A stretch of DNA of 54,491 nt, counting the filler, from Jimgerdemannia flammicorona (Eukaryota): NCBI GenBank assembly GCA_003990765.1. It is 2 parts of 2 records of this genome, joined end to end, with 100 filler letters (N's around TTAATTAATTAA, not from the genome) between each part and the next. Parts side by side here need not be neighbours in the genome. Positions count along the whole stretch, not along the records: positions 27,303 to 54,491 come from RBNJ01000653.1; 1 more part is not named here. One strand, given 5' to 3'. Position numbers and translations under genes: made by a program. Positions 990 through 35,520 of this stretch are shown here, piece by piece (position 1 is the first letter of the stretch; every line of letters starts with the position of its first letter). The notes under the pieces are model-generated. The model did no database searches. It was not told where the DNA came from and worked only from the letters and a program-made list of their open reading frames with translations.

Positions 990-3900
990 CACCCACCCCA
1001 TAAACCAATGCCCTGGGGGCCCAACCCCCCACCCTCCACCTCCCCCTGCCCAAGCACCACCCGATCACCCACAACCAGAACCCTCCCACCACTTTTCTGG
1101 GAGATACACTGCACCAAACCCCTGCGGCGCCCCCCACCCAGACCCCAACCCTGCCACCAGCTGTTTAAAATGTCCCACAGCAACCATTCCCACCGTGCTA
1201 CCTTCTCTCCAACCCCAACCCGATGCCCATCCTCAAATACATATACCCAATGCCCTGCCAACCCGACCCATATAGCCAAGGCCCAACTAAGGGTCAGCCA
1301 TTCGTCCCCGACCCCACCCACCAAACGCCGGTGAAGCTCTCCCCATCTCCCCCCTCCCTCCCCTCCCCCAGCCCCCAACCCTAACCTGGCCATTATACAT
1401 TTCCAGAACTCCCCCAGAACCTCACACTTGCCAAGCCAATGTTCAGGCGTTTGTACCACCCCTCCCTCCTGACCAACATTGAAACAATCCTCGCACTCGA
1501 AAACCCCACCATCCACCAAGTGACCAGACCGATAGTTCAGCATCACATTCCGCCAAAGGATCCGCCACCACGCCAACCAGAACTTAGAGGGCAGCCACTG
1601 CCTCACCCTTTTGCTCCAAAGCCAGAGCCCATTCCAATTCCACTCTTCCCCGATTCCAACCCTCTGCCAGGCTTCAGGCCACAGGTCTCCACCTAGGCCT
1701 CGCAGGCACTCCAGACCCTCGCCAAGCTGAAAGTCCTCCACCGGAACACCACCCAAAAGAAGCCTGTCCCATCTCCACATCTGCGGTCCCCAAACCTCCT
1801 CGGCCTCATCTCCTCGCCACCAAAGGCTGATTTTCCTAGCTCCATCCACCGCTCTCTACCAAAAGCCTGTAAACCGCATCCTCTGGCTCCCATCCATGGC
1901 CACCATTGCAAGCAGGTCGCCGGAGCCACCACGTGGGGAGTATCAAACCTCCCACAACCTCTGCATGAGTGGCACCCACTCCCGACCTCTAAGCTCACTC
2001 GCTCTCCTTAGCCACCAGGCCCTCAGACACAAAAGCCGCTTAGTAAAGTCCACTAAGCCCAGTCCACCTCTTTCCAAGGGCAGTGTGAGCACCTCCCAAC
2101 CAATCTGGCTCCGCCGCCCTCTCCAAATCCATGACCTCACCATCTTCAACAACCCCTTAACCACCCACGGTGGGAAATCCAAATGATATCCAACATACCA
2201 CAGCTTTGGCATCCAGTACACATTCAACACCATTACCCTTCCGGCAAGGGACATATGCCGACCTCCCCACCGAATCAAAACATTGCCCCACTCCAGCAGT
2301 TTATGATCCCACCATGCCTGGGGAAGAAGAGATCTGAACACCGAGAAGTAGATCCCCAAGTAGCGCACTGGTTCACCAGCCAGAACCACCGTCCCAATAA
2401 CATCACCTCCTACAATTCCAGCACCCAGCACCAGCATCTCACATTTGTGCCAGTTCAGTTTAGCACCAGAGCCCTGCTCATACCATTCCACTGTCCTCTG
2501 TAACTCTCCAACATCCCCCAAGGAACCCAGTCCGACCACCATGTCATCAGCAAAGGCCCCCACCTTCCAGTTCACCCCTAGAACGTCCAAACCGCCAATC
2601 TTACACCGAATCCTATCCAGTAGTGGCTCCAGGGAAAGGGCATACAATATGAGTGACAAGGGGTCCCCTTGTGGCACCCCATGGCCCAGGGGGAAGGTCA
2701 CCCCCTGGTGGCCATTGATGACCAATGCCGCCTGACTGTCCTCCAAGAGGCTGACCAATGAACCTCGGAACCCCGGGGGGATACTAATCTGCTTCAGCAC
2801 TCCCTCCAGCCATATTCTCCGCACTCTATCATAAGCCATCTCCTGGTCCAGAAACACCAATCTGCCATCCACCCCTGTAGCCCGGGCACCTTCAATCACT
2901 CCATGAACCCAGGCCGTCCCATCTCGAATCAACTGACCTCCGACAAACCCACGTTGCTCCACCCCAAGCACCTGTTGCGCGATCCCTTGCAACCGCAACA
3001 CCACGATCTTCGTCACCAGTTTGCAGTCCATGTCCAGAAGCATGATTGGCTGCCAGTTCTTCCAATCCTCCCTCCTGCCCTTGTTCTTATAAAGCAAGGA
3101 GATCAGCCCCAAGTGCTGTCCCCCAATCCAGGCACCAGACCGTAGAACTTCATCACACATAGCCCTCATTTCCTCTAGTACCTCATGCACCCCTGTCATC
3201 TTCTGCCAAAAATCCCAGGGGAGTCCATCCTCTCCCGGGGCTGTCCCTTTACTCGTAGATGCCACCACCTTGCAAATCTCCTCGCCACTCACTGGGTCCC
3301 CCAACGCCCCAAGTCCAACTGCAGGGTCCGGGTGCCAATCCCCCAGCTGCCTGTCAATGTCCAGAGCATCCAGTCCCCCTTCATCCTCACTCCAAAGGTT
3401 CCCCCACTGGGATCGCAATAGTTCCAAAATCGCCAGGGTCCCCATCACCAGCTCACCATCATCGTCCAAAACTCCCTCCCACCACTGCCTCGTTCGTCGT
3501 GCTCGTAACAACCGTGACAAGAACCTGGTAGGTCTCTCCCCTTCCTCAAGCCCCTGCCATCGTAAGCGGGCCACCATCCCCTGTAGTTGTTCCTCTTCCT
3601 CCCTTCGTAGCACCCCTTTGAGCTCCTCCACCTCCTGCCGGATTCTTGCAATATGCCAATCAGTCTCGGCCCTGTCCTCCAGCACACCCGCCCATCTCTC
3701 CGTGAGTGCCGCCAAATGCCGTGAGGCCCACATCACCCATCGCCTTTGCTGAGCACTCTTTCCTTTCCCCGCTTCCCTCCAATACCCCTGAGCCTTCACC
3801 TTCAGCCTCCTCCAGCAGTCCCCAATTGCCAGTCCTCGATCCTGCTACTTGCCGATATCTCCAACCACCTCTATCTCCCAACCCTCCCACAATGTCCTAT

Positions 3901-4663
3901 CCTCCAACAAGGAAGAGTTTAGCCGCCAATGTCCGGGCCCATCCTCATTTCCCCCAAACCTCCCCCCTCCAAGCAACCCCCAGTGATCAGACCATGGACA
4001 CCATATGACTCCCAGCACCGTCCAGACATCCACTCCCCAACACTCTGCTGTAAGAACCCAGTCAATCCTAGAGCCCAGTCCTGCTGCCCAATGGGTATAC
4101 ACCCGCCGATCTGCCCAAAAATGTCTCCCTGAGTCCACTAAAGAGCACAATCTTTCCATCTCCAACCAGTCCGCTAACCCACCACTCTCACCCCGCATGC
4201 CTCTCCCTCCATCAGTTCTGTCCAACTCCTTATCTCGTACCATGTTGAAGTCCTCCCCCATACAGTCAAACCCAATTTCTCCCAATAATCCATCCTCTTT
4301 CAATCTGCGAATCCAATCCACCCTCTCCCCTCTCTCAGCCAGGCAGTAGTAAGACCCAACCATCAGCAAGCCCCATCCAGGCCTTTTCCATACTCCCCAC
4401 ACCACACGCGACCCCCAATGTCCAATGTCCCCAATGTCCCCCATCCCTTTCCGAACAAGAATACCCACTTTCCCCCTCCAAACTGCTGCACCCCCCCATT
4501 CCTTAGTCCAATCCTGTAAATCCACATCTGCCTCATACCGAACATCCTGTAACAAGAAGAGGTCCGCATCTAGATCCCGAAGCCAACCAAAAATGTACTT
4601 CCTCCTAGCCGCCCCCCATAGCCCATTAATGTTCAATGAGAATATCCTAGTTGTACTGTTCAT
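990..4663 (-). pseudogene. LINE ORF2 (AP-endonuclease / reverse transcriptase / Cys-His domain), disrupted
   Basis: MNSTTRIFSLNINGL, LFLLQD, EDFN, SRIDW, SDH (APE); APGEDG, WQPIMLL, EQRGF, FLDQEMAYDRV, GVPQGDPLS, AFADD, YLGI (RT); CEDC...EHWLGKC. Split over ORFs 3845-4693, 1943-3799 and 869-1849 by stops and frameshifts. 3' end approximate. Confidence 0.92.
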
Positions 4664-4694
4664 ATTGAGTAGATATTGTAGAGGAGACCCCAAT

Positions 4695-6611
4695 CTATAA
4701 TTCCATGCTCATCTCATCCCTCGCCAAGTCCAAGAGCCGCTCAGCTTCCAATTCACCCTCCGCAATATCCCAAGCATCCAGTGCCCCCAAGATTTCCTAA
4801 TACTCCACCCTGTCCACCTCCTCCATATCCGCCCTGTAATCCAAGCAAACTGCGCGCCACTTCTCCAGTCCCTTCCTCGAGTTCCACAAGACAAGTGCCC
4901 TATCGCTCGCAATCCTTCTAAGCTCCTCCTCTCGCTGATCATCAACCTGATACTCAACAGACTCCAGGAGGACCGCCAGGATCTCATTCCTCATCTTCCT
5001 CGGCACCTCTTCCCAACGTAGAATCTCTTCCCAGTGCCTCTCCTCCATCACCCTGAAATCCTCACCCCCCAGCTCCTCAGCCGCTACCCCTTCCAGAGTC
5101 TTCCACATCCACTTCTCCTCATCTACCACCTCTGCCACCCCCTGAGCAATTTGTCCCCCATCCACCTCAGGGTCCACCAGCACACTCCTCCTCACTGACT
5201 CATCCCACTCCTCATCCGGCACATCCATTAGCTCCTCCTCGCCTCCTGCCCCATTTGGAACACTATACTGAAGGTGTCCACCTTCTCCCATTTCAGCATC
5301 CACCTCTAAGTTATCCTCCCTCCCCTCCCCGACTCCAATTTGAGCCCCGCCCTGGGCCATCTCACCCCCTTCAGCCCAGGCGCTCTCCTGCAACCCTGTG
5401 GCCCCCTCCTCAGAGCTTCCACCAGTCCTACCCCTGCCCATCTTCGCCAACAGCTCCTTCTGGATCCTCCTCCCCTGCATCTTCTCCCAGGCCCCCTTCT
5501 CCATTCAAACCCTCTTCCCATCCACCTCCCCCACCACCATCCTGGCCTCAAACTCCTTCCAGGCCAATCTCCTCCTCGCAACTGCCCCTTCCAGGTCCTC
5601 CAGAGCCTCCAATAGGTCCTCCTCCTCCTCCTGAGTCCCCTTCACCCTGGTGACCTTACACTCCACTGGTCCCCACCTCAATGCCGCTGGCCAGTTCCTT
5701 GACTTCCCTGTATTCTCCTTTCCAGCCAGTCTCACCCTGACATCAACATCTCCAGTTCTAAGCTCCATGCCCTCTCAGACCTTGAACCCAACATCCACAA
5801 TCTCACCATACTCCTTGATCGCCTCCACAACCAACTCCCTGGTCCATTCCTTCGACACCGTAGGAAGGTCCAACACCGTCAACTGCACCACCCGGGGGTC
5901 CCAGCGCATACACTGGGCCATAGGGACCATGACCCCGCCAACCACCACCCCCTTCTCCATAGCTGCCAACAAGGCGTCTTCCTCCTCAAACCCCACTTCG
6001 ACCCCTTCCTTTCCTCTCAAGAACTTCACTGATGCCGCTCCCTTAGCCTCCTGCACCACCAGCCCCAAAATCATTCTCGCTGTCACTGCCAAGCCCCGGA
6101 AGCACATCGTGACCACGAATTCGGACCTCGACTTCTTGAGTAACAGGGCCGACACCATGCCTGTCACCCCATCTGCCAGGTCCCCGGGTCTCGTACCCCC
6201 TCCAAGCCCCAAATTGCCAACCACCGTCACATCTGGATTTTTTGCCAGATCCCCAGTCACAGCCCCATCAACCATCACATCTCCAGCCCCTACTCCAGCC
6301 CCTTCCCTACCACCAGAAGTACCCCGGGGTGCACCTCCCTGACCCCCAGCAGTAGCCATCGATGCCTTCCCCAGGCCCAGCCAACTATTCAGCCCAGAAG
6401 CCATCTTCTCCATCCTGACCTTGTCAGCAAAGGTCATCCTCTCCCCTCCTCGCTGCCGCAGACCACCCCTCCCTCTGCCACTGGGGCCGTGGCCAGCCAT
6501 CGAGGCCCCTGGCATCCCCAAACCATCTCCCCTCTGCCCCACCTACTGCCAGCCAAAGGTGCCATCACCCCCCTGGCCAGTATGCTCACCAGATCGATCG
6601 TTGCCGTCCAT
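4695..6611 (-). pseudogene. LINE ORF1 (Gly-rich N-terminus, RRM-like domain, acidic helical C-terminus), ~638 codons with in-frame stops
   Basis: ATG at 6611 and TAG at 4697-4695 are in frame with ORFs 5775-6542, 5505-5768 and 4797-5504. RRM-like segment VVQLTVLDLP...IKEYGEIVDVGF. Homologous to 19011-21065. Confidence 0.85.
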
Positions 6612-6677: not shown

Positions 6678-9600
6678 TTACTGGTGAAAGGGGTGAGTTC
6701 AAATCTTACTTATCAATCAGAAGAATCAAGACTATATAGTTAAGGAAGAAGACTGAGTTACATAAATAATCTTAGAAAATGCCAGTTAACCCAAGATTAT
6801 AAAAGTCTAAAAACTATTTGAAACTAAGTAAGACTAGAAAGGATTTAGTAGTACTGATCAAGTAGTAAGTCTTACTGAAAACTGAGCTCAAGTCATACTT
6901 ATTTTTAAAGGTCTAGTTAAAGAGAAAGAAGTTGAAGTACTCATAGATAGCAGAGCTACAAAAAACTTTATCAACTAGAACCTTATTAAAAATCTCAAGA
7001 TTCTCATCAAGCCTATATTCAAGAATAATAGTATAGTTATTATAGATAATATACTATATTCCATCAAGTCAATTGTTGCCAAACTACTCATCAAGATCTA
7101 GAAATATTCAGAATAAGTGAACTTTGAGATTATACTACTAGGAGATTATAATCTGATCTTAGAAAATCTCTGGCTTATCAAATATAATCCAAACATTGAT
7201 TGATATAAGAATAAAGTTACTTTACTTAAAGATAGAGTTAATATCACTATCAAGATAGATAAGACTATGAGCAAAATCCAGATTACAATATTATCAGTAA
7301 TATAATATAAGAAAGTACTCAAGAAGATAGTATATACCTTTGTTACAATTATCTGTCCCAAGAAATAAAATAAAAAGCTATCAATTAATAAAAGTATCAA
7401 GTTGTTACTTGAAGAATTTAAAGATATCTTTCTAGAAAAGCTATCTGATCTATCATCTGTATGAGAAGTTAATTATGAAATTGAACTGATCCCAGAAGTC
7501 ATACTACTCAAAAAATACATATACTGTATATTATCTCTTAAAATTGAAGTAGTCAAAAAGAAACTAGAAGAGTTACTTGTATAAAGAGCCATTTAACCAA
7601 ACAAATCCCCTTATGGCTCACCAGTCCTATTTATCAAGAAGAAGAATAGTACTCTAAATATATATAGACTACTGAGCACTCAATAAGCTTATAGTTAAGA
7701 ACCAGTATCTACTACTCTTAATTGATCAAATTTTTGATGCTCTCAAGAATACCAAGTACTTTACTAAGTTAAACCTTATATTGGGTTATTACTAAATCTG
7801 AATCAAGTTAGAAGATATTCTTAAGATTATATTTATATGTAACTCTCTTTGGACTCTATAAATTTCTAGTTCTAGTATTTGGTCTTACTAATATACCTAT
7901 CATATTTCAGATCCTCATGAATAAGATATTCAAGAACTAACTATTTATCTTCTTATTAGTATATCTTGATAATATCCTAATCTTTAGTATAACTAAAAAA
8001 GAATACCTCAAATATATCTAAGTAGTTCTGGAAATCTTGTACAAATATAAGCTTTATATAAAGCTTAATAAATATCAATTTTTTAAAAAATAGGTCAAAT
8101 ATCTTAACCACATTGTCTCTGTATAAGAAATTCAAGTAGATCTATACAAGATAGAGGTAATTCAAGAATGGTCTATTCTATCAAACCTTATAGAACTTTG
8201 GTCCTTTCTTGGTCTAGTTGGCTATTACTATCACTTTGTTAGAAACTTCTCTAGTATTGCTGAGCTACTGACTAATCTCATAAGGAAGACCCCTCACTCT
8301 GATCACTATGTACCCTATACCTGTGCCATTTTTTGTCAATAAGTCTTCTAAAAACTCAAGAACTATCTAACTCATACTTCAGTTATGTATAATGCAGATT
8401 CAAGTCTGAAATTTACTGTCATCACTAATATGTTAAATTTTACCATTGAAGTAGTTCTGTTATAAGATGATGACAAAGAATATCACTCTATTTTTTTTGA
8501 GTCGCACAAGTTGGCCCTAGCTAAACAAAAGCTAGCTACTTATGAAAAAGAGCTACTGGTAATAATATATGTACTAGACCACTGGTAATATTATCTAGAA
8601 GATATTGAGTTTGATATTATTACTGACCATCAATCTCTCAAGTATATCAACACCCAACCTATTTTATTATATCTATAAACCAAGTAGAGTCTAAAGCTTC
8701 AAACCTTCAACTTAATAATTATCTATAAGTCTGGAAAAATACTTATAGTACCAGATATCTTATCTGGATGTCCAGACCTCACCACAATTATATAAGTCAC
8801 CCTAGTATCAGAATTTCTAGACCAAATTAGATAAGTTTATAAAGAAGACACTATTACTACTAGAGTCTTCTCAAATAAGTTTAAGGATATATATACCATT
8901 AAGAATAATCTGATCTACTATTAAGACAAAGTCTATCTATCTGATAATATAAATCTATACTATAAGATACTATAAGAATACTATGACTCTCTACTTATCA
9001 GCTATCTTAAAATTGAAAAAACTATTAAGAATATTCAGCACCACTACTATTGGCCAAGTATGGTCAAGAAAATCAAGAACTATATTACTAGCTGTGATCT
9101 CTGTTAGTGCAATAAGTCTATCAACCAAGTACTAGCTAGTTTTCTACAACTACTGTCTATTCTAACTAAGAAATTTAAATAAGTTATAATAAACTTTATA
9201 ACTTAACTACTATGAACTCAATCTGGTGCTGATGCTATTATTATATTTATTAACTACCTAATCAAAACTATGGTTATCAAATCAACTACCACTAATATTA
9301 TCATACTTAAGATTATAAGAATCTTCTTCAAGTCCATCTTTCATCACTATGGCCTACTATGAGTAATTATAAGTAACTGTGACCCCAATTTTATTAGTCA
9401 CTTCTGACAAATTCTCTTCAAGACTCTAGAAATCCAATTGACCATATCTACTACCTTCTATCTACAAACTAATGGACAAACTAAGTACATGAACAGAACT
9501 CTAGAATAAATACTCAGAAACTATATTTCTTATAAGTAGAATAATTGAGACTATTACTTAACTTATATAAAATTTATATATAATAATGTCATCTAATTAT

Positions 9601-10977
9601 CTACTAGCCATTCTCTCTTTTGGCTACTCTATGGTCAAGATTCCAAGACTTTTGCAAGTTTGATCTCTTATAGGAAAAGTAGTTAAATATGTATAAGTCT
9701 CTATTACCAAGAACCTTATAGATAAGATAGATGAACTACTTAAGATTGCTATTGTGAATCTTCAGAAAGCCCAATAATATCAAGTCAAGTATGCTAATAA
9801 GAAATACTGAAATATCATCTATACTATTAGTGATCAAGTCCTACTGTCTACTAAAAATCTCAAGATATAATCTCAAGTTAACTGCTTATTAAATAAATTT
9901 CAACTCAAGTATATTAGACCCTTTAAGAGTACTGAATGAGTCTCAGTATTCTTCTATTATCTCAAGTTATCTGAAACTATAAGAATATATCTAGTTATTT
10001 ATATATCATACCTCAAGACCTAGAACTAGTTATCACTCTATTCTGGTCAAATTTCCAAGCCATCTACCCTTATAATTATTGAAGACTATATTGAGTACAA
10101 AGTTGAGAAAATCCTTAACAAAGGAATCCACTACTATCATTCTGAATATCTGGTCAAGTAGATGGGCTATCTCAAATATGATACTATCTAGAAACTACTT
10201 ATTAATCTCAAGAACTACCAAGATCTAGTTTAAGACTTTGAGGCAAAAATATATTATTCAATTTCTATAGTGACTTCTTTAGATTATTGATGACCTATAG
10301 TAATAACTATATCTTATATATCAGAAGTTTACTTTGGGATCTCAGAACTAGTAGAATATCTAGTAAACAAGAAGTCTACTAAAATGAAGCTACTAGCTAG
10401 ATTCAAACCCCTCTCAGTTAGTTAGTCTGATAATATCTTATATGAGGATAACTAGTTCTCATCAATATACTGATATAAGTTTGAAAAATTTTGGTTGAGC
10501 ATATTTAGTCTTATATAACCTAAGAACTTAATAAGAATATTAGTTTTTAAGAAGAGAGAGATATAATAATTTTATAGTTATATTTTAGTCTTAGTACTTT
10601 TTTCATATTTTTTCTCTAGTCTTTTCTTATCTTTTCTTGAATATTCTATTATATTCTATTACTTTCCAAATACTGAGAAATCTTCTCTTGGCACTAAGTA
10701 TCTTATCTTAGCTAGTATAGAATCTTTTGGAATATTATAGAATTCTATTAGTTATCTTTACTAAGAATCTATTTCTTGGCTTTTCGCTTCTTTTTCAAGA
10801 TTCTTCTAAATCTTTCTTTCAGATATTATATAAATATCCTTATTCTCTACTTAAATAAAGCTCAGAATATTTTCTCCAAGAATCTCTTCAAGAATACTTC
10901 AACCTATAAGTATCTCTTTGAGCTACTTTAGACCTTAGATTTAGCTATTTTCTCTTAAATAAATTAGAACTATTATA
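6678..10977 (+). mobile_element. pol: Ty3/Gypsy chromovirus-like LTR retrotransposon, copy A (5'-truncated, strongly mutated): dUTPase C-terminus, protease, RT, RNase H, integrase, chromodomain, 3' LTR
   Basis: Remnants read on the plus strand: ETK*D*KGFSSTD (dUTPase motif 5), VLIDSRATKNFI (~6937), SPYGSPVLFIKKKN, VYLDNILIFS, FYLQTNGQTK, KYIRPF, YKVEKIL...EYLVK*MGY (chromodomain ~10087-10245). PPT at ~10549-10560. Colinear with copy B. Confidence 0.9.
10562..10977 (+). repeat. 3' LTR of Gypsy copy A
   Basis: Reverse-complement match to LTRs 11996-12459 and 16787-17220. Follows a purine tract. Eroded TG..CA ends (tataat...attata). Confidence 0.85.
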
Positions 10978-10979
10978 GT

Positions 10980-11705
10980 ATATATCAGAATTCTTAGACT
11001 CAACATATTTGTAATACTAAGTCTGATTAACTTGAAATATAAGTACAGTATCTCTACTTAGTCATAAGATCCTGAAAGTAATATTTGAACTTAATCTCAA
11101 TATTAGGTAATTAGAACTTAGAAGCCTCAGTATTAATTTAACTAATTAGATTCAGTACTTCTTCATTGAACTCAAGACTTAGAACTAATAGTCTATAGTA
11201 GATTATCTGTAATATATTAATTCTATCAATATATATTCTTATATATTATAATTTGATAGTAGTAGTGATTTCTCTTATCTATAAGTAATTTTCTCTAGAT
11301 AAAATCTTATAGCAAATATAGACAATCTTACAAAGAACTCAGATCTTAGAACTGATATTATCAATATTAATAGTACTAGTCAAGAATATTTTCAATCTAA
11401 ATACTCTTCAGAATTAAGCTAAAAAAGCTAATAAAATTATCACTGTATAGACTGAGATTTATACTAGCTAAGTGAAATTTAACAAACTTAACAATGAGAT
11501 AATATAAGAAGTATTTAATATATTTATAATACTTAATAAAGAATTTACCTATACTAAAGATATCAAAGAGGAATTTGAAAGACTAATCAGCAGTTATTTC
11601 AATAAGAAATATATCTTAGAATTTATCAAAGCTATAAGTGAATAATTTCTAAATTATTTTCTCAGAGATAGATACTACCAAGCTTAGATCTTTCTAAACT
11701 ATAAG
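10980..11705 (+). mobile_element. Decayed LTR-retrotransposon 5' part (LTR remnant, PBS, gag start)
   Basis: ttataa-tt-TGATAGTAGTAG at ~11247-11266 is an eroded LTR end plus TGGTAGCAGCAG PBS. Downstream sequence is paralogous to 18225-18660. Interrupted at 11705 by a Copia insertion. Confidence 0.65.
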
Positions 11706-23269: not shown

Positions 23270-25525
23270 ACTAGCTCACCAGCAATAGAAAAAATATATT
23301 CAGATGAAACAGATATCACTGAAATAGCAAGATAATCGTGAGCCATTCGTGAAAGATTAGGATATACCGACTGATTTCACTGCCACCAATCCAGTATATC
23401 TATACGAGGATCAGCTGGATTCTCTGACAAATAACTGAAACAGAGAAATATGAGTGAAAATTAACCAAGCCAATCAAAAAACATAAAAACAACACCCACT
23501 ATTCAAGCTCATCATCCACATCGACATGCTGTTTCTTCTCATATATTGAGTTAATAAAATCATCAGCATTATGAGATATTGAGGGTATAATGATAGCATT
23601 AACAGGCTTATACTCCTTTTCCCAGATATGTTCCATCTGATTCTTCTATTCATCAATTAAGGATTTTTTCCATTGCTCACGACAGAAATAATACATGTTG
23701 ATACATGGATCTAAGGCCAAAGCTATGCTGTATAATGGTGTCATCTTGCAGTAATACTTTAGAAGTTTCATATGTGCATTCTCAGCAGCAGTAAGTATTA
23801 TCTATAAAAAATAAAAATATATACATATTACTTCCCAATTACTTACTAAATTAGTTCCTAAATTCACAAATAAAATTACTTTCAAAATCATATATATACC
23901 TGATTAAAATGTTCACCAGTTTGATATGTATCAATGATATCTTCGAGGTGATCACATAGCTGATTAAATAGTGGGATAACAGCTGCTATTGTAGGATACT
24001 TCGAAGCTGACATCACAGTTGTCACTTTGGCAAAAGACTCGAGAAATCAGCAAATCAATTCAAATTATTACCATGCATCTTCAGATATATCACTCATTTG
24101 CTTATCTATAGCACACAATATATCCAAGCCCTATTTGGATGTAATATCAATTTATTTAGTACCAAAATACTTCCAAATTGTATTCCAAAATTTATACAAA
24201 TAGATTCAAAATCTTACCTTACGAATCTCCAGAGCACACACTAACATTTTATGTGTAGAACTCCATCTCATCATAATATCTAAGAGAGGCTTCAAAATGG
24301 GAATTCCGGAGGATTCACAGACCTTCGCCAGTTGTGCTTGTCATTGCGCTGAATTTTTGATCTTCTTTATCAACTCCCATAGCTTTCCAATGGGCTTGCT
24401 AAGAGAACCAAGAGCATCATGAATGACGAGATTCAACACATGCCTGAAACAGCATACATGAGCGAGTGGATGATAGAGATTCTCAAACAGAGTATCATTG
24501 TTACTGGCATTGTCACACACAACAGCAATGATTTGATTGTCACTAGGCAATATATCATCTATTACCAGCTCCAGACTTTTTGCAAGATTGGCACCCATGT
24601 GTGTTATTTCGCTGATATTCACAAAGTCTAAGATAATGTCATGCATTTTCCAATCACTGTCAATCCAATGGGCTATTATTCCAAGAAAAGCCTTGATGTT
24701 AATGTCTGATGTCCAACAATCAAGTATAAGTGACACCTTTGACTTGAGTCCTGCTAGCCTTGCTTTCACTTGAGTCCATAATAGTTCAAATTCCTTTTGA
24801 ATAACTCGCGAAATTGTATCAGCTGATAGAAGGGCCAGATCAGGGTGTAATATGTGAAGGAGATACTTGAAGCCAGCATTTTCGATAGTGGAGAATGGCT
24901 GATATCCAGTGACAATGAAGTTGGTAATTAACCGATAGAAATTTTCATCACTTAAAGTCTTGCTAGTGTGTTCCTATTTGTAATAATAAAATTTGATCAA
25001 TTATTTTTCTAATAACCTCCTAAGTACTTCCCGAATTCCATTCTATCCATACTCACAATATCATCTTTCTTAGACCAGCGAGGATTCTCAGCATGCTGGA
25101 GAGGTAAGAGCATGGCATTGTGATGCTTCCAGAGATATCATTTAAGATTGTTGATATTGCCATCTTTCGATATATAGCTCTAAGTCATGCAATGGTTGCA
25201 ACTGATGAGCTTACTTTGTAAATTCTATTTGAATAGAGAGATATGAGACTATATTAGAACCTCAACCACTTACAACCAACCACCCACTCTTACGACTGAG
25301 ACCAATCACCCCTATGAATTCAACCATTAGCACAATATATAAAACTACCTTTGTGGCATGATTCCACACCCAGCTATCACTAGGTTTTGTTTTTATTTTT
25401 ATTCTCATGCTCATTGGTGATAATGAACTAGTGGAGATATCTGATATATCCTCCGATATATCCTCCGATATATCATCCAATGGTTCCGAGATTTCTCCTA
25501 AATGTACTTCTTGATCTTTAGACAT
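23270..25525 (-). pseudogene. hAT transposase (BED finger, DDE core, hATC dimerisation domain), multi-exon, with stops
   Basis: SWVWNHATK / ISCNHC...LWKHH (BED), LILDCWTS, FLGIIAHWIDSDW, VVCDNASNN, HVCCFRHVLNL (CxxH), RWSSTHKML, KYPTIAAVIP, LDP, DILDWW..NQSVYPNLSRMAHDYLAI..SVSSEYIFS. GT-AG introns, e.g. 25348-25225. Confidence 0.93.
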
Positions 25526-25871: not shown

Positions 25872-26240
25872 CATTGAGCAAGGTTTGCAATGACGTTTGA
25901 GTGAGGTTTGTGGTGTGTTTGAGTGAGGTTTGTGGTGTGTTTGAGTGAGTTTTGCAGTGAGGCTCGAGCAAGATTTGCAAGCGAGATTTACAAGTGAGAT
26001 TTGTACATAAGATTAAAGCAAGATTTGCATAAGCCAGGCTTTGCAAGCCTTGCACTTGCAAGCCTGGACAAGCTCAGTCACAAGCTGATATGATATGTAT
26101 ATAAGCTGATATCACGTGATATCAGCTATCAGCTGAGCTTGCAAGTGCAAAGCTTGCAAATCTCACTCGAATTTCACTGCAAATCTCACTCAAACACACC
26201 ACAAATCTCACTCAAATGTTGTTGCAAACCTTGCTCAATC
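25872..26240. repeat. Long imperfect inverted repeat 1 with perfect 24-bp palindrome AGCTGATATCACGTGATATCAGCT (26104-26127)
   Basis: Left arm attgagcaaggtttgcaa..tttgagtgag.tttgtggtgtgtttgagtgag..tgcacttgcaagc is mirrored by gcttgcaagtgca..ctcactcaaacacaccacaaatctcactcaaa..ttgcaaaccttgctcaat. Confidence 0.9.
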
Positions 26241-26271: not shown

Positions 26272-26510
26272 GAGAGGAGTGGAACGCAGTGAGGAAAGCT
26301 CCAGATTGCAAGTGTAAGTGTAAGTATAAGCATAAGCATAAGCATAAGCATAAGTATAAGCTTTGCTCTGCTCAGTCTGACAAGCTGATAATAAGCTGAT
26401 ATCATGTAATATCATCTATCAGCTGAGCAGAGCAAAGCTTGTGCTTGTGCTTATGCTTATGCTTATGCTTGCAATCCAGAGCTTTCCTCACTGTATTCCA
26501 CTCCTTTTGC
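26272..26510. repeat. Long imperfect inverted repeat 2 with the same core and (AAGCAT)n arms
   Basis: aggagtggaa..cagtgaggaaagctc..gattgcaag(..taagca)n..gctttgctctgctcag / ctgagcagagcaaagc(ttatgc)n ttgcaatc..gagctttcctcactg..ttccactcct. Core aagctgatatcatgtaatatcatctatcagctgagc. Confidence 0.9.
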
Positions 26511-27202: not shown

Positions 27203-27302
27203 NNNNNNNNNNNNNNNNNNNNNNNNNNNNNNNNNNNNNNNNNNNNTTAATTAATTAANNNNNNNNNNNNNNNNNNNNNNNNNNNNNNNNNNNNNNNNNN
27301 NN
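27203..27302. other. Artificial contig-joining linker (44 N + TTAATTAATTAA + 44 N)
   Basis: A six-frame stop spacer centred in an exact 100-bp N block. The two sides need not be truly adjacent. Confidence 0.95.
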
Positions 27303-27309
27303 CAGATTC

Positions 27310-27864
27310 ATGAGAGGATTCTCCAACATTGCAGACCCAATCTACGAACTCAACAAGAAGGATACCAAGTTCCAGTGGACTGGCAGACAACAAAAAGCAT
27401 TTGACGAACTCAAGGTCAGACTAACTCAGGCACCCATCCTCAGACAACCCAATTGGACCCAAGAATTTATCCTTCAGACAGATGCAAGCACACAAGGACT
27501 AGGAGCAGTCCTGGCTCAAAAAGAAGACAGAAAAGAGTATGTCATTGCATATCTTAGCCGCGGGACCCGAGGGGCTGAAAAAGAATACGAGTCCTACAAG
27601 TTGGAATGCCTTGCAGTCATCTGGGCTGTGGAAAAGTTCCACTACTATCTGGCCGGAAGACACTTCACCATCCAGATGGACCACTCAGCTCTCACCTGGC
27701 TACTGACAACCGGACAACCCAAGGGAATCTATGCCAGATGGATAATGAAGTTACAAGCCTATGATGTAACCATCGTGCACTGCCCTGGAAGAACAAATTC
27801 CAATGCAGATGCTCTCTCACAGATACCTCGAACTACCTCCAACCAACAAATCAATCATGAATAA
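27310..27864 (+). CDS. pol: RT connection / RNase H (partial, starts at gap)
   Basis: FQWTGRQQKAFDELK, FILQTDASTQGLGAVL, YKLECLAVIWA, DHSAL, NADALS, then TAA. Confidence 0.92.
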   Translation: MRGFSNIADPIYELNKKDTKFQWTGRQQKAFDELKVRLTQAPILRQPNWTQEFILQTDASTQGLGAVLAQKEDRKEYVIAYLSRGTRGAEKEYESYKLECLAVIWAVEKFHYYLAGRHFTIQMDHSALTWLLTTGQPKGIYARWIMKLQAYDVTIVHCPGRTNSNADALSQIPRTTSNQQINHE

Positions 27865-29050
27865 GGAGCTCTACTATGGAATCATCATATACCTGGGACA
27901 GCAAAAGATGCCCCAACATCTGGAAGAATGGACACAAATGATTATCAACAGAACATGGAAACAATTCGAAACTGACGGAGAAACACTGAAGAAAGGAAAA
28001 CTACTAGTCATACCAGAACACAAGAAGGAGCAAGCAATGAAATCAGTACATAAACTTGGCCATCTAGGAGGAACAAATATATACAACAAGGCAAGAAGAA
28101 CAATATGGTGGCCAGGGATGGAGGAAGATATCAGACAATTCATCAAGACCTGTGACAAATGCCAGAAACAGAAATAAGACCAACGAAATCAAGCCCCAGG
28201 ATCAGCACACATAGAACCAGTACCATTCGCCCACATTGCAATGGATATAATTGGCCCCCTACTGTTGACTTTGACTGGCAACCGATACATCATTGTCATC
28301 GTAGACCTTTTTACAAAGTGGATAGAAGCGGGACCCCTTATGGAAGCCAATGCACAGTTAATCGCCGATTTCTTCCATAAGGAAATCATCTGCCGGTTCA
28401 AGACCCCAACACAAGTAACTACAGATAGAGGAACCGAATTCGTGAACCAGTTCTTCGAAGTTCTCTACAAGAAGTACAAGATCCAGCACATTCGGACCAC
28501 AGCCTATCACCCTCAAGGGAATGGACAAGTAGAAAGGACCAACAAGACCCTCAAGAATATTATTGCCAAGATCTGCAATAGCTACGAGAACTGGGATCAC
28601 TATCTACCAATAGCATTATCTGCTCTCCGGGATATCCGATCACAAAGTACCCACTTTACCCCTCGAGAAATGCTGTTTGGAGAAGAATATTCTCAAGGAA
28701 CCCTATCATCCAATGGAGACACTGTATGGAAACATGTGGACACGGAAATACAGAGACTACACCAAATCAGGAAGAAGGCTGAGGATTACATAACGAAGGC
28801 GCAGACACTACAATGGAGAAACGTGGAAAAAACCCACAAACTGTTGGAGATCATCAAGATAGGAGACAAAGTCCTGGTGTATCGGAATATGGTTGAAGCT
28901 TCATGGTCACGAAAACTGGAGCCCAAGTGGGAAGGACCTTACCTTGTGCAAGATATAAAAGGGACCACCTTTTGGCTACAAAATCCCTCAGGCATAATAA
29001 TCCCCACCACCATTCACCGAAACTGACTCAAGAAATACCATGGCCAGTAA
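27857..29050 (+). pseudogene. Integrase encoded in a separate reading frame
   Basis: Own ATG at 27857. HHCC (HKLGH...CDKC), DDE (AMDIIG, TDRGTEF, QVERTN), KWEGPY. Internal stops at 28175 and 29024 look like CAA>TAA and CGA>TGA. The likely natural end is HRN(R)LKKYHGQ* at 29050. Confidence 0.88.
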
Positions 29051-29501
29051 CAAAAGTACTGCAATAGCACTCAAGATCACTAGTGCTGCCCAAAGAGCCA
29101 TCAAAAGACAATGGCACACCACCGAGCCTCCAACCATAGAGCTATTCTATGAGGATATTCAGAGTATTGGGCAGACTCATCTCTCTCAGATCTCGCACTT
29201 TAGAGCCTATCAATATCAGGCAGAATTCCAAGAGTACTTCAAGCTTGGACAGGTGCTCAATCAGGATCCAGCAAAGACCAAGGAGGACTGGATTGCCGAG
29301 TGTCAACTCTCCCACTCACAGATCACTGTTGCCAAAAGGATCCACAAGTTATTCCAAGAAGATAAAGCAGCGATAGACCACCTGAGAGGAGTAACCCCTA
29401 CCGACTTCGAGAAAGTGAGAAGACATCATTGGGAAACAGTTATACAGCAAATCGCACAGTACAAGACCATACAGACCGTTGAAGCCTGGGAGTTTGAATA
29501 G
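29040..29501 (+). CDS. Extra 153-aa ORF of unknown function between integrase and PPT
   Basis: Intact ATG to TAG, overlapping the integrase end. A degraded homologue sits at the same position in copy D (31118-31543, minus). Confidence 0.8.
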   Translation: MASNKSTAIALKITSAAQRAIKRQWHTTEPPTIELFYEDIQSIGQTHLSQISHFRAYQYQAEFQEYFKLGQVLNQDPAKTKEDWIAECQLSHSQITVAKRIHKLFQEDKAAIDHLRGVTPTDFEKVRRHHWETVIQQIAQYKTIQTVEAWEFE

Positions 29502-29538
29502 ATACCTCAGGGACAAGACCATCTATTCAGGAGGAAGT

Positions 29539-29997
29539 TGTGATGGTACAGCCAGATTTAGAAAAAGGAAATAGGGAATAGACACTTGATCGCACCAATT
29601 CCCAAAGTAGTATAGCATTATAGTTAGCCGTCCTCGATTTTGACATTGTCTAATTTCTTAGACATTATCCAAATCGAATACCCCGATTTAGTATAGTATT
29701 TAGACATTGTCCAAATGTTTCGACAAAGTCCAAATGACTCATTTATTACTTAGCCACCCTCTCATAGCTAGCAAACTTGTATAAATAACCCAGTATCTTC
29801 AAGTGAATAAACCTCAGATCAAAATAGTTCAAAGCAAAGAGATAGCAAAGGAACTAGTAAGCCTGCGGGCAGATATACTTCGAACTCACCCACCCTCCCC
29901 TGCAACTTCAAGAAGACTCTGCGAGAGTCAGAACAGTCAAGTTTTCAAGATACAGAAATCCAACGTACTTTCAAGAGTAAGCGTCCGCCACATTACA
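29539..29997 (+). repeat. 3' LTR of copy C
   Basis: TG...CA ends, follows the PPT, contains TATAAA and AATAAA. Homologous to 30628-31080 and 40380-40650. Confidence 0.9.
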
Positions 29998-30176
29998 ATA
30001 TATACAAATATATCTAATATACTATTAATATACTGAATTTAAATATTGAAGTAATGATATTTTGCTATTTAAGTATACTTTCTACTTATAATAAATTATA
30101 ATTTATTTATTAAATAGATTAGTTATACATAGTTTGAGATTATATAAATTAATATAATATTAAATATATATATATA

Positions 30177-30612
30177 TAATAGGAGAATAAATAGATACTA
30201 TACAGAAAAAACTAATATTAGGTAATTAGAAGTATATAGTATCCTCAAAAAAAATAAAAATCAATTATTTTAAATTCTATATATAATATCTGTCTTTTTG
30301 AATTTTACAGTCAATTAAAGGTTATATGACTTTTTCTATATTGAAAATACTGCAAAACTATATTAAACTGACTATAAATACTCAAATAGTATATTATTAT
30401 TATCTCAAATATCTAAGATACTATAAAATTGAATTAAAGAAATAAAATACCATTTAATACAAGTTATGTAACATTAGTTAACTAAAATTTGAAAAGATAT
30501 ATATTATATATAGAATTCAAAATGATTGATTTTGTTTTATTAGAAGATACTCTATACTTACTATCACCTAATATAAGTCTGTTCTATATAATATCTATTT
30601 ATTCATCTATTA
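30177..30612. mobile_element. AT-rich foldback/MITE-like element with ~155-bp inverted arms
   Basis: 30177-30333 matches the reverse complement of 30461-30612 (gaataaatagata..atattaggt..agtatc..aaaatcaat.atttt.aattctatatataatat). Confidence 0.7.
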
Positions 30613-30627
30613 TTCTTATATACATAT

Positions 30628-33600
30628 TATAACCTAATCTCAGAAGTATGACAGATTTCTATATCTTGAAATCTTGACTTGTTCTAACTCTTACAGAGTC
30701 CTCAGATTGCAGGAGAGTGAGTTCAAAGTATATCTGCTGCAGGCTTACTAGTTTCTTTGATTTCTCTTTACTTTAAACTATTTTGACCTAAGGTTTATTC
30801 ACTCTAAGATACTGGGTTATTTATATACGTTTTCCAGCAATAAGGTGGCTAAGTTATGACTATATTATGAGTTACTTTTTGCAAGTATTAAATCTTTTAA
30901 TATCTGCAGAATCTTCAACATCTGCAAAGAGTTTAATATTCATAAAAACTTTAATAGTTGCAAAATACAATAGCTACTATTTATAAGACTATACTATATT
31001 AGATATGTATTGGGTTCAGATATCATAATCAAATATCTAATTCTCCTGATTCATATTCTTAATTTAGATCAACTATTACAACTTCCTCCTGAATAGATGA
31101 GTTATCTCTGAAACATTCTATTCAAACTCCTAAGCTTTTATAATTTATATCTTCTTGTACTGTACAATTTATATTATTATATACTCCTAGTACTATCTCT
31201 TGATATATTCAAAGTCTTTTAGGACTACTCTACAAAGATGAGTGAGAGCTGGCTTATTATCCTTAAATATCTTTTTAACTCATTTGATAGTTGTGATCTA
31301 AGTATAAGAGAGCTGGCACTCTTTAATCCAGTCTTCTTTTCCCATATCTTGCTGTGAGTTCAATAGCTATCTCAACTTAAAGTATTCTTGAAACTCAGTT
31401 TGGTTCTGATAGGTCTTAAAGTATAAGATTCATAATAAGTATATCTAAACTATGCTCTATATACTATCAAAGGATACTTCTATAGCTTACTATATAGTAC
31501 TGATGATTTTGAGGGCTGTGGCAGTACTCTGTTAATTAGCCATGATATTTCTTGAGTCAGTTTCAGTAAATGGTAGTGGAGATGATTGTGCCTGAGAGTT
31601 TTTATAGCCAAAAGATGATTCTTTTTATATCTTGTACTAGGTAAGATCCTTCTAACTTAGGCTCCAGTTTTTATGACTATGAGACTTATGAATCTTTTCT
31701 ACATTATTCTATTATAGTTTCTGCACCTTAGTTATATAATTCTTAGCCTTCTTTCTGCTTTTGTATAGTCTTTATATCTCCATATCTATATATTTCCATA
31801 TAGTATTAATAGAGTTTCTTGAGAACTTTCTTCTCTAAACAACATCTCTCAAGAGGTGAAATAAGTACTTTGTAATCTGATATTCCAGAGAGCAGATAAT
31901 GCTATTGGCAGATAGTAATCCCAGTTTTCATAGTTATCATAAATCCTAATGATAATATTCTTAAGAGTCTTATTGGTTCTTTCTACTTATCCATTCTCTT
32001 ATGGGTAATAGGCTATAGTCTGAATGTGCTGGATACTGTACTTCTTGTAGGAAATCTCAAAGAACTAGTTTACAAATTCTGTTCCTCTATCTATAGTTAC
32101 TTGTGCTGGAGTCTTGAATTAGCAGATGATTTCTTTATGAAAGAAATCAGTAATTAACTGTGTATTGGCTTTCTTGAGAGATTCTGTCTCTATCTATTTC
32201 ATAAAAAGGTTTACAATTACTATAATGTATTGGTTGCCAGTCAATATCAGAGATAGCAGGCCATTTATATCTATTGCTATATGAGTAAAGAGTACTGGTT
32301 CTATGTATACTGATTCTGGAGTTTGGTTTTGTTGGTCTTATTTCTGTTTCTGACATTTATCACAGATTTTGACAAATTGTCTGATATCTTTCTCCATTCC
32401 TGGCCACTACATTATTCTTCTTACTTTATCATATATATTTGTTCCTTCTAGATATCTAAGTTCATATATGGATTTCATTACTTACTTCTTCTTATATTTA
32501 GATATTACTAGTAATTTTCCTTTCTTCAGTATTTCTCCATCAGTCTGGAATTGTTTCTATGTTCTGTTGATAATCATTTGTATCTATTCTTCTAGATATT
32601 GGAGCATTTTTCACTGTTCTAGATAGGTAATGATTCTATAGTAGAGCTCCTTATTTATAATTGATTTGCTGGTTAGAGGTCCTTCAGAGTATCCATAAGA
32701 GAGTATCTATATTAGTGTTAGTTCTTTCTGGATAGTATATGATGGTTACATCATAGGCTTATAACTTTATAATCCATCTAATATAGATTTCTTTGGATTG
32801 TCCAGTAGTCATTAGCCAAGTGAGAGCTGAATAGTCTGTCTGGATAATGAAATATCTTCTGGCAAGGTAGTTGTGGAACTTTTCTATAGTCCAGATGACC
32901 ACAAGGTATTCCAACTTGTAGGATTATGACATATTCTACTTTATCTTTCTTTTGAGCCAGGACCACTCCTAGTTCTTAGGTGCTTGCATCTGTCTATAGA
33001 ACGAATTCTTGAGTCCAATTAGGTCTTCTGAGGATAGATGTCTGAGTCAGTCTGACCTTAAGTTCATCAAATACTTTTTATTGTCTACTGGTCTATTAGA
33101 ACTTCATATTCTTCTTATTAAGTTCATAGATTGGACTTACAATATTGGAGAATTCTCTGATAAAACTTTGGTAGTAAGAGATAAGTCCCATGAAGGCTTG
33201 GGCTTTAGTAACTATAGTGGACCTTCGGTATGCTGCTACTACTTGAATCTTGAGAGAGTCTGTATATATTCTATCTCTAATAATATGATCTTGATAGATG
33301 ATCTCAATTTCTACAAACTTGCACTTCTTGAGATTGATATAAAGACCATACTGTTTTAGCTTTTCTATCATCTGCTAGATATACTGTAGATGATAATATC
33401 ATTTATATAAACTATTATCTATCTTCCTATATCATAGTGAAAGATTTTGTTCATCATTCTCTGAAAGCTTACTAGTGTATTGTATATTCTAAATAATATT
33501 CACAAATAGATATAGATTCCATCTGGGGTAATGAAAGTGATTTTTTGCTTGCTGCTTTAGTAAGTCTGATTTGATAGAATTCTGAGTATAAATCCAAGAT

Positions 33601-35520
33601 GCTGTAGAACTGTACTTCATCTCCCAAGGTTATGAGGATGTTACTAATAAGAGGTAATGGTTTGTGATCTTTCTTGGTAACCAAATTGAGCTTTCTGTAA
33701 TCAGTATAGAGTCTTGGGGTGAATTCTCCTGACTTACTTTCTTTTTTTAGGGCTAGTACAACTGGTGAAGTCCAGGGGCTGCTGGCTTCTTTAATGATTT
33801 TGACTTCTTTCATCTGTTTGATTTCTTCTCTATGTCATTTATGGTAGACTGGTAGTATTGGTCTTGCTTTTTGGTAGATTGGTTCAGTGTCTCCTATATC
33901 TATATCATAATAGTAGTATGGAGTCTTTTTTTTGATATTCTTGAAATTCATAACTAGGATATTCTTGAATTCATAGAGAATCTTCTTGAGTTCCTTCTTG
34001 AGAAAAAATTTGTTTTCAATGGTATAGCTATGCTTGTTCATCATTTCCTCCTTCTTGTAATCCAGTTTGGTAATTTTGATACTAGCAAATACTCCTCTTC
34101 CTATAGATCTGAATTCTTTTCATCCTCTTTCTATTTCCTCCAACTTCTTGATTCTATGATTCTTGGCTGAAGAACTAGGAAGATCAATATCTGTATTAGT
34201 CAGTCCTTCTTCTTGATTGGAAATAGAATTGTAGAATTGTAGAATTGTAGTTCCTAGTAATGAGTAGTATTTCTCTAATATAATCTAAATCGATGACTCC
34301 TCCTTCAATTGTAATTTTACTCTTAGCCAGGCTACTTTTGTCTTAAGAATTCTGACATGGTTCTTTGGAAGAGCCATCTCCAGACCAGTTGTAAGTAGGG
34401 TGATTGTCTGGGGCTCTAATACAGTTTCTTTTACTATTGTGATATCTATTCCAGCTACATTATCTGACTTATATTCTGGTAGAACTGTATCAAAGTGGAT
34501 CCTCTGAATCTTGAACTTGATTTCTTTCTCATCATTACTCTCCTCTAGGAGGACTAGTGGTTCATCATCCTCTTTCTCCTTCTCTTCTCTTATATACTTT
34601 TTGAGAGCCTTCTGTCTTCTTTTCTAATAGATCTTTCTGATGCTAATGCTATATTAGTAGCAGTCATTGATGTGCTCACTATAGTAAATCTTAATTTCAT
34701 AGAGACAGACTCCTTGTGGTATATATTTTTCTACAATCTTTCTGCATCAGTCTTCTTCACTAATCTATTCAACTTTCTTCTTCTTTTTCTGAGTAGTCAC
34801 TATATAGGCTTCTTTTTGCTCACTTTCTTCTTCCTCTATCTCAGGTAGCACTTCTTTATTGACATTAATGGAAATTTGCATCTTCTGACCTTAGTAGATG
34901 ATTTGTATTCAAATTAATTATTGTCTTGACTTTATGAAGCCACTGGTTGAGAATATCATAGTTGGTGACATTGATCATGATTATATCTACTAGAATAGTT
35001 GCTTTCTCAAACTTGATGGAAATATCTTGAAACTTTTTCAGAGGTGTGGCTCTTGTACTGTCTACTGTGATAAATACCAATTTGGTTACTTCTTCAACTT
35101 CCCAATCTAGGCAGTCTGCTGTTTTCTTGCTGAGGAGATATCCTTCTACTTCTGTATCAATGATGGCTTTGAAGATTCTATCTTCAATCTGATAGATTAT
35201 TTAGGCAGAGGTCTTGTAATTGTCTTTGCTCTCTTTTTCTGAATCTTCTTAAATATTTTTGGCCTTAGTTATCTTTCAGTATTGCTTCTTAGTTATCTTG
35301 GCAAGTCTATATCTCATTTGCTATCTAAATGTGGATATTTCTGCTCTTGATATTAGTGAATATTTATTCTTAAACTGATAGACCTGGGTGGCTTCTTGAT
35401 CTAGCTATTTGATAGATAGCAGTATTTTGTTTTATTATAGATTTTCTATTTGTGGTTGATGCTTTGTACTTTTTCTCTTAATGTTTCTTTTATATCTTGA
35501 AGGTCTTCTTCTTTAGTCCA
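30628..35520 (-). mobile_element. Gypsy-like family 2, copy D (strongly mutated): protease, dUTPase, RT, RNase H // integrase // extra ORF, 3' LTR 30628-31080
   Basis: KAIIDTEV (protease ~35150), SSPWTSPVVLALKK..PRLYTDYRKLN, ILDLYSEFYQI (RT), integrase and extra ORF colinear with copy C, PPT at 31082-31090. 5' end lost. Confidence 0.9.
34255..34500 (-). pseudogene. dut: dUTPase domain between protease and RT in copy D
   Basis: SDNVAGIDIT (motif 1), LLTTGLEMALPKNH, SLAK (motif 2), IEGGVIDLDYIREI (motif 3). Confidence 0.8.

Follow-up and report, generated by a model that had tools for sequence, protein, structure and literature searches.

A Ty3/Gypsy family with integrase in a cistron of its own beside the end of Pol, seen in Jimgerdemannia flammicorona and soil metagenomes

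Can the integrase of a Gypsy-like retrotransposon be encoded apart from the rest of Pol? The question is raised by a locus of Jimgerdemannia flammicorona (assembly GCA_003990765.1) within a 54,491-nucleotide stretch of DNA, filler included, referred to here as the window. The accepted view of retroviruses and long terminal repeat (LTR) retrotransposons is that integrase (IN) arrives in the particle as the C-terminal portion of Gag-Pol, its ratio to reverse transcriptase (RT) being fixed. In the window, the RNase H (RH) frame closes at TAA 27862-27864 and IN begins at its own ATG (27857) in the +1 frame, exactly as an earlier reading of the sequence alone (the sequence-only reading) had placed them; the junction reads ATGAATAA. 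That reading took the break for a family trait. Homologous proteins, metagenome loci, near-identical contigs and a tree of IN sequences bear this out, and the second copy in the window does not; from these comparisons, the break and the IN ATG are very probably a property of the family and not the result of decay.

The copy in question (copy C; window 27303-29832, + strand) has the following parts around the break.

27303..27864, + strand: 3' end of the Pol cistron, with the RT C-terminus and RNase H (Pfam); ends ...DALSQIPRTTSNQQINHE, then TAA 27862-64
27857..27864, + strand: stop-start overlap ATGAATAA; IN ATG 27857-59, 2 nucleotides (nt) ahead of the Pol TAA 27862-64; IN frame +1
27857..29050, + strand: IN cistron (Pfam); the family's own stop matches TAA 29048-50
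29040..29501, + strand: third open reading frame (ORF3), 153 codons, intact, in the +1 frame relative to IN; ATG 29040, stop TAG 29499-29501

The RT/RNase H frame is open from 27304 to 27861 (186 codons) up to the stop at 27862-64, and its RNase H is recognized by Pfam as RT_RNaseH_2 (E 6.2e-36) and RT_RNaseH (E 1.1e-35). The IN of copy C comprises an N-terminal helix (MNKELYYG...), an H2C2 zinc finger, a DDE core and a GPY/F-type C-terminus, with Pfam matches to Integrase_H2C2 (E 1e-18) and rve (E 3.6e-13). Two in-frame stops, TAA 28175-77 and TGA 29024-26, break this IN.

The trait is most directly visible in relatives at 36-63% identity, in which the break recurs at this same position and the ORFs flanking it are intact. 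The junctions known as DNA within the family are listed here, with the frame of IN given relative to RH.

L001, metagenome locus: junction TAATG; IN frame -1; ORFs open on both sides
L002, metagenome locus: junction TGATG; IN frame -1; ORFs open on both sides
L003, metagenome locus: junction TGAtcATG; IN frame -1; ORFs open on both sides
L036, contig of low quality, containing Ns and with several IN-frame stops: junction ATGAATTGTGA; IN frame +1
Window, 27857-64: junction ATGAATAA; IN frame +1

The Pol stop and the IN ATG are no more than 8 nt apart in all of these junctions (5/5). A more distant relative, L006 (31% identity, GC 0.33), is also split, with intact RT-RH and IN ORFs and an IN ATG at the homologous MEIPLYNG.

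Proteins point the same way. The six best longer homologues of the IN core (530-571 residues, 46-48% identity, 100% coverage) hold IN domains only, and their N-termini, MNQEVYYG, MDPNLYYG, MNNDLYYG or MDQELYYG, align to the MNKELYYG of the window. The nearest matches that also hold RT/RNase H are far weaker (P0007, 39% identity over half the query; P0008, 34%). The closest representative, P0124, is a protein of 413 amino acids (aa) ending ...HRNRLKKYYSQDA; in a search limited to proteins of 227-723 aa, which excludes fused forms by size, 105/119 of its IN homologues among the matches listed start at the homologous Met, in another 4 that Met is preceded by 7-18 additional residues, and the other 10 are truncated at the N-terminus.

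Near-identical contigs, at a likeness of at least 85%, came from four public runs, of which three sequence soil metagenomes within a single study (word shares 0.16-0.23). One contig per run spans 27857-64 with 0 gaps (4/4 runs). In runs X1, X3 and X4, all differences of the bridging contigs fall at 27781, 27821 and 27824, so ATGAATAA is unchanged in these runs. Across the four runs, only two indels occur in 27310-29700, at 27944 and 29657. Young copies with RH and IN in one continuous frame, which the sequence-only reading had named as the finding that would overturn it, did not turn up, and the contigs of all four runs are free of indels at the junction. The indels elsewhere are small: one X4 contig is without 3 nt at 27944, in frame within the N-terminal region of IN, and in one contig 18 nt are inserted following 29657, within the LTR-like stretch.

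A tree of IN sequences was built from 130 rows, namely 126 of the best 150 representatives (those with at least 300 aligned profile positions) plus P0001, P0003, P0004 and P0005. All 20 stand-alone IN rows, those starting at the homologous Met, fall in one 38-row clade with local support of 100. Outside the clade, 0/92 rows are stand-alone and 77/92 are fused; fused proteins, which an unrestricted HMMER search does return, sit elsewhere in the IN tree. Within the clade, 13 further rows are either shorter or align poorly at their N-terminal end, and 5 were scored as fused, 3 of the latter being tandem-IN chimeras. The split architecture is thus restricted to one clade. Searches of viral and prokaryote-genome collections returned only distant relatives (26-42% identity), among them L100, a fused element; L084 is too short for its junction to be read.

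Beyond the size limit on the P0124 search, several points weigh against the split as a family trait. Protein starts are automatic gene calls on metagenome contigs, only five in-family junctions are known as DNA, and the tree was built by FastTree only. Moreover, two proteins, P0211 and P0212, are genuine RT-RH-IN fusions inside the clade; their sub-branch has long or uncertain branches and includes a flagged long-branch pair, P0211 and P0166.

The rival to a family trait is decay, in which copies C and D would both have inherited one indel, or a short intron would join the frames again. The sequence-only reading had argued from D as an independent copy, which, in terms of the window, involves the following features.

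27304-29960, + strand: arm C of a palindrome; pairs with 33167-30654
30163..30628, no strand: AT-rich, self-complementary palindrome centre between arms C and D
30654..34336, - strand: arm D, the same insertion inverted, reaching further 5' with a dUTPase-like fragment, RT, RH, IN and ORF3

The spacing claimed for D at 32651-32658 is there: the minus strand reads ATAAATAA at 32658..32651, and the arms align gap-free across 27715-28000. The independence of D did not hold up, since D and C are opposite arms of a single inverted duplication. Both extra IN stops of copy C are also present in arm D. A third LTR-like copy at 40647-40445 matches both arms only up to ~29832; the likeness of C and D continues past that point, indicating duplication of a single insertion along with flanking sequence. 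That C and D agree at the junction is therefore uninformative about the family, and their being one duplicated insertion with two nonsense mutations in common counts in favour of decay. Breaks are also common in decayed Gypsy loci. In a noisy control of 80 metagenome loci, the IN frame was open for at least 150 codons upstream in 13 and closed in 56, either inside IN or within the 150 codons ahead of its predicted start. Another 11 were uninformative, so that the frame was closed in 56/69 informative loci; many of the closed loci are merely decayed, and a break alone proves nothing. What decides against decay is the recurrence of the same break between intact ORFs in relatives at 36-63% identity, the start of 105/119 listed homologues at the homologous Met and the absence of indels from the bridging contigs of four runs. 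An intron joining the RH and IN frames is unlikely on the local sequence: there is no GT in 27812-27857, from the DALSQ codons to the ATG, so a canonical intron does not fit there. Decay is largely refuted, and we consider it extremely improbable.

Arm D is a duplicate of C with heavy damage of the repeat-induced point mutation (RIP) type. Relative to C it shows 220 C>T and 147 G>A changes against 83 reverse transitions, with 162/366 in CpA context. The damage is uneven between the arms (367 C>T/G>A changes towards D and 83 towards C), and GC is ~0.43 in C and 0.26-0.33 in D. When fused relatives were used as tblastn queries to look for gag and protease in arm D, matches extended no further than the dUTPase/RT region; the related metagenome loci begin inside dUTPase.

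By its RT-RH and IN sequences, the family belongs to Ty3/Gypsy (Metaviridae). The RT-RH of L001 matches the Ty3 RT/RNase H chain 4ol8 at E 4.5e-91, ahead of 8r0s and retroviral RT chains, and the IN of P0124 matches residues 1073-1424 of Ty3 Gag-Pol (7q5b) at E 5.4e-30. Ty3 of Saccharomyces cerevisiae is thus the best solved match for both halves, and the order RT-RH-IN is common to both. In contrast to Ty3, where RT-RH and IN lie in one Gag-Pol chain (7q5b), IN here has its own ATG and is followed by a third gene; the canonical single-frame RH-IN layout is found neither in copy C nor in the in-family loci. Pfam finds no chromodomain in the IN of the window, P0124 or L006, and IN ends a few residues after HRNRLKKY. 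A dUTPase domain lies upstream of RT in L001, L036 and arm D. Fungal Gypsy elements with dUTPase, some of them between protease (PR) and RT, are described in PMC2864245, and such elements (Tmt1 of Tuber, PosPlaTy3 of Postia, and Phanerochaete elements) have dUTPase in common with this family. They differ in having a chromodomain by description, which is lacking here, and the available text of that source does not mention a separate IN cistron.

The clade with the split is large, and nearly all sightings to date are from soil metagenomes. It includes very AT-rich members (L006, GC 0.33; L084, GC 0.30), and proteins P0145-P0270 are rich in N, K and I; the hosts of the clade are probably diverse. 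In the output of metagenome pipelines these INs go by the names 'transposase InsO family protein' or 'IS30 family transposase', and several relatives are placed in bacterial metagenome-assembled genomes, likely as contaminant contigs.

The second question is how an IN so encoded would be translated. Three successive cistrons are present, with a conserved ATG at each boundary and an adjacent stop. Pol ends after RNase H, IN is its own cistron, with its ATG at a fixed homologous position a few nucleotides from the Pol stop, and ORF3 begins within the final codons of IN. In the preferred explanation, Pol, IN and ORF3 would all be read from a genomic-length RNA, on which a ribosome finishing Pol, and later IN, would remain and reinitiate at the adjacent ATG. 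The yields of IN and ORF3 would be lower than that of RT, and IN would be supplied as a free protein instead of being carried into the particle within Gag-Pol. Consistent with this proposal, the RH/IN and IN/ORF3 junctions are of the same form in the subfamily of the window (ATGAATAA and ATGGCCAGTAA). Stop-start reinitiation at UAAUG/AUGA sites is described for the hypovirus CHV1 (UAAUG), for victoriviruses and for the non-LTR element SART1 (UAAUG) (PMC5972666; PMC2699510). In yeasts and filamentous fungi, reinitiation downstream of long ORFs is described as being supported by a short intergenic sequence (PMC10352335), and polycistronic transcripts are described as widespread in mushroom-forming fungi (PMC4503453). 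Judged on the junctions, we give an even chance that IN, and in the window's subfamily ORF3, are translated by termination-reinitiation on the genomic RNA.

Of the mechanisms proposed by the sequence-only reading, reinitiation and a separate mRNA remain in contention, and frameshifting is disfavoured by the mixed direction of the frame change and by L006. Programmed frameshifting (+1 in the subfamily of the window, -1 in the others) would fuse RH to IN, with the Met kept for some other reason. There are frame overlaps in which this could occur, spanning 27773-27864 in the window and measuring 133 nt in L001 and 118 nt in L003, and Ty3 itself uses +1 frameshifting at gag-pol. However, the direction differs among close relatives (L001-L003 are -1, the window and L036 +1); L002 has an overlap of just 16 nt, with no slippery X XXY YYZ heptamer seen by eye; and L006 has no overlap at all, its IN frame starting only downstream of the RH stop. 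The ATG is kept in 109/119 listed homologues, and fusion would not need it. Together these points disfavour frameshifting, which we regard as improbable.

A separate RNA is the more serious rival to reinitiation. IN, and ORF3 with it or separately, would be read from a subgenomic RNA of its own, produced either by splicing from the leader to an acceptor just ahead of the IN ATG, in the manner of retroviral env, or by an internal promoter, and the closeness of stop and start would merely reflect tight packing. Several observations that weigh against reinitiation bear on this choice. The spacer between the RH stop and the IN ATG of L006 is 110 nt and has stops in all frames, and in L001-L003 the ORF3 ATG lies 122-404 nt ahead of the IN stop, too far for simple stop-start coupling, so that ORF3 there needs another route; both fit a separate RNA better than coupling. 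Known viral reinitiation systems need upstream or nearby RNA elements, and no shared RNA structure was found upstream of the junction in the four loci that were folded (fold z-scores of -2.26, -1.34, -0.94 and +0.30), a sample too small for covariation, from which L036, which contains N, was left out. The junction hairpins of L001 and L002 are without counterpart in L003 or the window. The lack of a conserved reinitiation structure in these four loci and the strong ACCATGG context at the ORF3 ATG likewise favour a separate RNA. This explanation, however, does not require a stop and an ATG within 8 nt, yet 5/5 in-family junctions have them, and the pyrimidine run followed by CAG at 27812-21 is simply the DALSQ codons. 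A separate RNA accounts better for L006 and for the ORF3 of L001-L003; for IN and ORF3 in general, we consider it rather unlikely.

The third gene deserves separate attention. In the window, the ORF3 ATG lies 5 nt ahead of the IN stop (ATGGCCAGTAA). The sequence-only reading had ORF3 overlapping the end of IN, which is correct for ATG 29040 and the in-frame TAA at 29048-50; the IN of copy C itself stops earlier, at 28175 and 29024, and so falls short of ATG 29040. Both of these earlier stops represent damage. Position 28175 is C (CAA) in every covering contig (13, 4, 2 and 2 contigs in the four runs), indicating that TAA 28175 is a private C>T change in copy C, and relatives read HRNRLKKY where copy C has HRN*LKKY, indicating that TGA 29024 is likewise damage. 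Most P0124-like INs end 3-10 residues after KKY(H/Y), which is the site of the ORF3 ATG. The context of that ATG is ACCATGG in both the window and L001, within the conserved Y-H-(G/D) codons of IN.

Conservation of its reading frame marks ORF3 as a real, conserved gene. A metagenome protein, P0382, is 79% identical to ORF3 and has the same length of 153 aa, and four partial proteins are 63-73% identical. In L001-L004 there is an ORF at the ORF3 position, and only that frame is both stop-free and clearly conserved in 6/6 pairs (E 1e-11 to 8e-52); the overlapping tail of the IN frame is not conserved in these pairs. Between the two ORF3 subfamilies, hhalign gives a weak alignment (probability 56%, E 1e-4), around a shared motif ahead of '...L.GVT...'. 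ORF3 belongs to no Pfam family, and its AlphaFold2 model is all-helical with a mean predicted local distance difference test score (pLDDT) of 62.2. A Foldseek search of the PDB gave no fold match (best E 0.18), and in the Atlas ORF3 falls only in unnamed or unrelated clusters. In the subfamily of P0001-P0006 and L001-L003, the IN gene call extends by ~130-150 R/P/S-rich residues, which are an out-of-frame reading of ORF3.

The junction can be compared with several known systems. Skipper has a separate protease ORF and Ogre has an intron between protease and RT; in these elements a Pol domain is also split off, but at another boundary and by another proposed mechanism (readthrough or splicing). 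CHV1 and victoriviruses, which are viruses of fungi, and the retrotransposon SART1 have overlapping or abutting stop-start sites between long ORFs, as described, and resemble the TAATG and TGATG seen here; they couple capsid to polymerase or ORF1 to ORF2, whereas the junction here lies inside what is usually Pol. Unlike systems of that type, no upstream pseudoknot, termination upstream ribosome-binding site (TURBS) or downstream structure could be shown at the family junctions in the four loci folded. The next-best distinct solved match of the L001 RT, after two Ty3 entries, is 8r0s, an 'Enzymatic polyprotein' (E 4e-54), which we take to be caulimoviral. Caulimoviridae (e.g., cauliflower mosaic virus, CaMV) are reverse-transcribing relatives of Metaviridae that lack integrase and use a viral transactivator (TAV), whereas ORF3 here is without detectable similarity to anything. 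Several cistrons of one RNA are described as being read by reinitiation in Caulimoviridae (PMC5902531).

No published Gypsy lineage with a separate, stop-start-coupled IN was found in the literature searched, with most subscription journals and Repbase outside reach, and an undescribed lineage is plausible for this reason. The full proposal is of a large, diverse and undescribed Ty3/Gypsy clade, abundant among soil eukaryotes (probably fungi), with an operon-like order of PR/dUTPase-RT-RH, IN and ORF3 read from a single RNA by stop-start reinitiation, in which IN would be free and act in trans and ORF3 would be a new accessory protein. Taken as a whole, it is tentative, its chances being somewhat short of even.

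The remaining features of copy C are those of its two ends.

27203..27302, no strand: scaffold joint of 44 N, TTAATTAATTAA and 44 N
29530-37, + strand: purine run GGAGGAAG, resembling a polypurine tract
29539 to ~29832, + strand: LTR-like stretch beginning with TG; boundaries inferred

The sequence between the N runs, TTAATTAATTAA, has stops in all six frames; the whole block looks like an artificial scaffold or contig joiner, and the sequences flanking it need not be genomic neighbours. It removes the 5' part of copy C, that is, gag, protease, dUTPase and most of RT. ATG 27310 is not a start codon, the element being cut at the joint just upstream. No primer-binding site or target-site duplication was identified for copy C, whose 5' end is lost at the joint. 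Parts of the LTR-like stretch are found again at 40647-40445 (minus strand). The region 27303-29832 thus amounts to the 3' two-thirds of a Ty3/Gypsy LTR retrotransposon, a dead copy that is truncated and has two nonsense mutations in IN. Copy C itself is ordinary junk, and its interest lies in the architecture of the family.

Elsewhere in the window there is a second, larger, nested palindrome, in which 7706-10981 pairs with 15309-11992 inside 3009-6316 paired with 22752-19323, with arms that are 67-78% identical. Its inner arms hold another Gypsy family whose RH and IN share a frame (a single high-scoring segment pair with P0008 in tblastn), and its outer arms hold RT and endonuclease ORFs resembling those of long interspersed nuclear elements (LINEs; 1943-4708, minus strand; named by eye). 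Inverted duplications of this large kind appear to be characteristic of the region. A 210-codon open frame at 24341-24973 (minus strand) is a candidate hAT-type transposase fragment, also by eye, and short self-complementary stretches with dinucleotide-like repeats lie just upstream of the scaffold joint (25873-26239 and 26275-26505). A prokaryotic origin, suggested by the operon-like look of the family, was rejected in view of the RIP-type mutation, the LINE-like element and the other remains of eukaryotic transposons in the window.

If the split is as it appears, a clade with IN as its own cistron would show that the link between IN and Gag-Pol is dispensable, and would raise the question of how free IN finds the cDNA or the particle. 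If reinitiation is the route, it would be a natural and apparently widespread case of eukaryotic translational coupling after a very long ORF, on a retroelement and not an RNA virus, and its short junctions could serve polycistronic expression in fungi. The InsO and IS30 labels given by annotation pipelines hide this clade as bacterial-looking genes.

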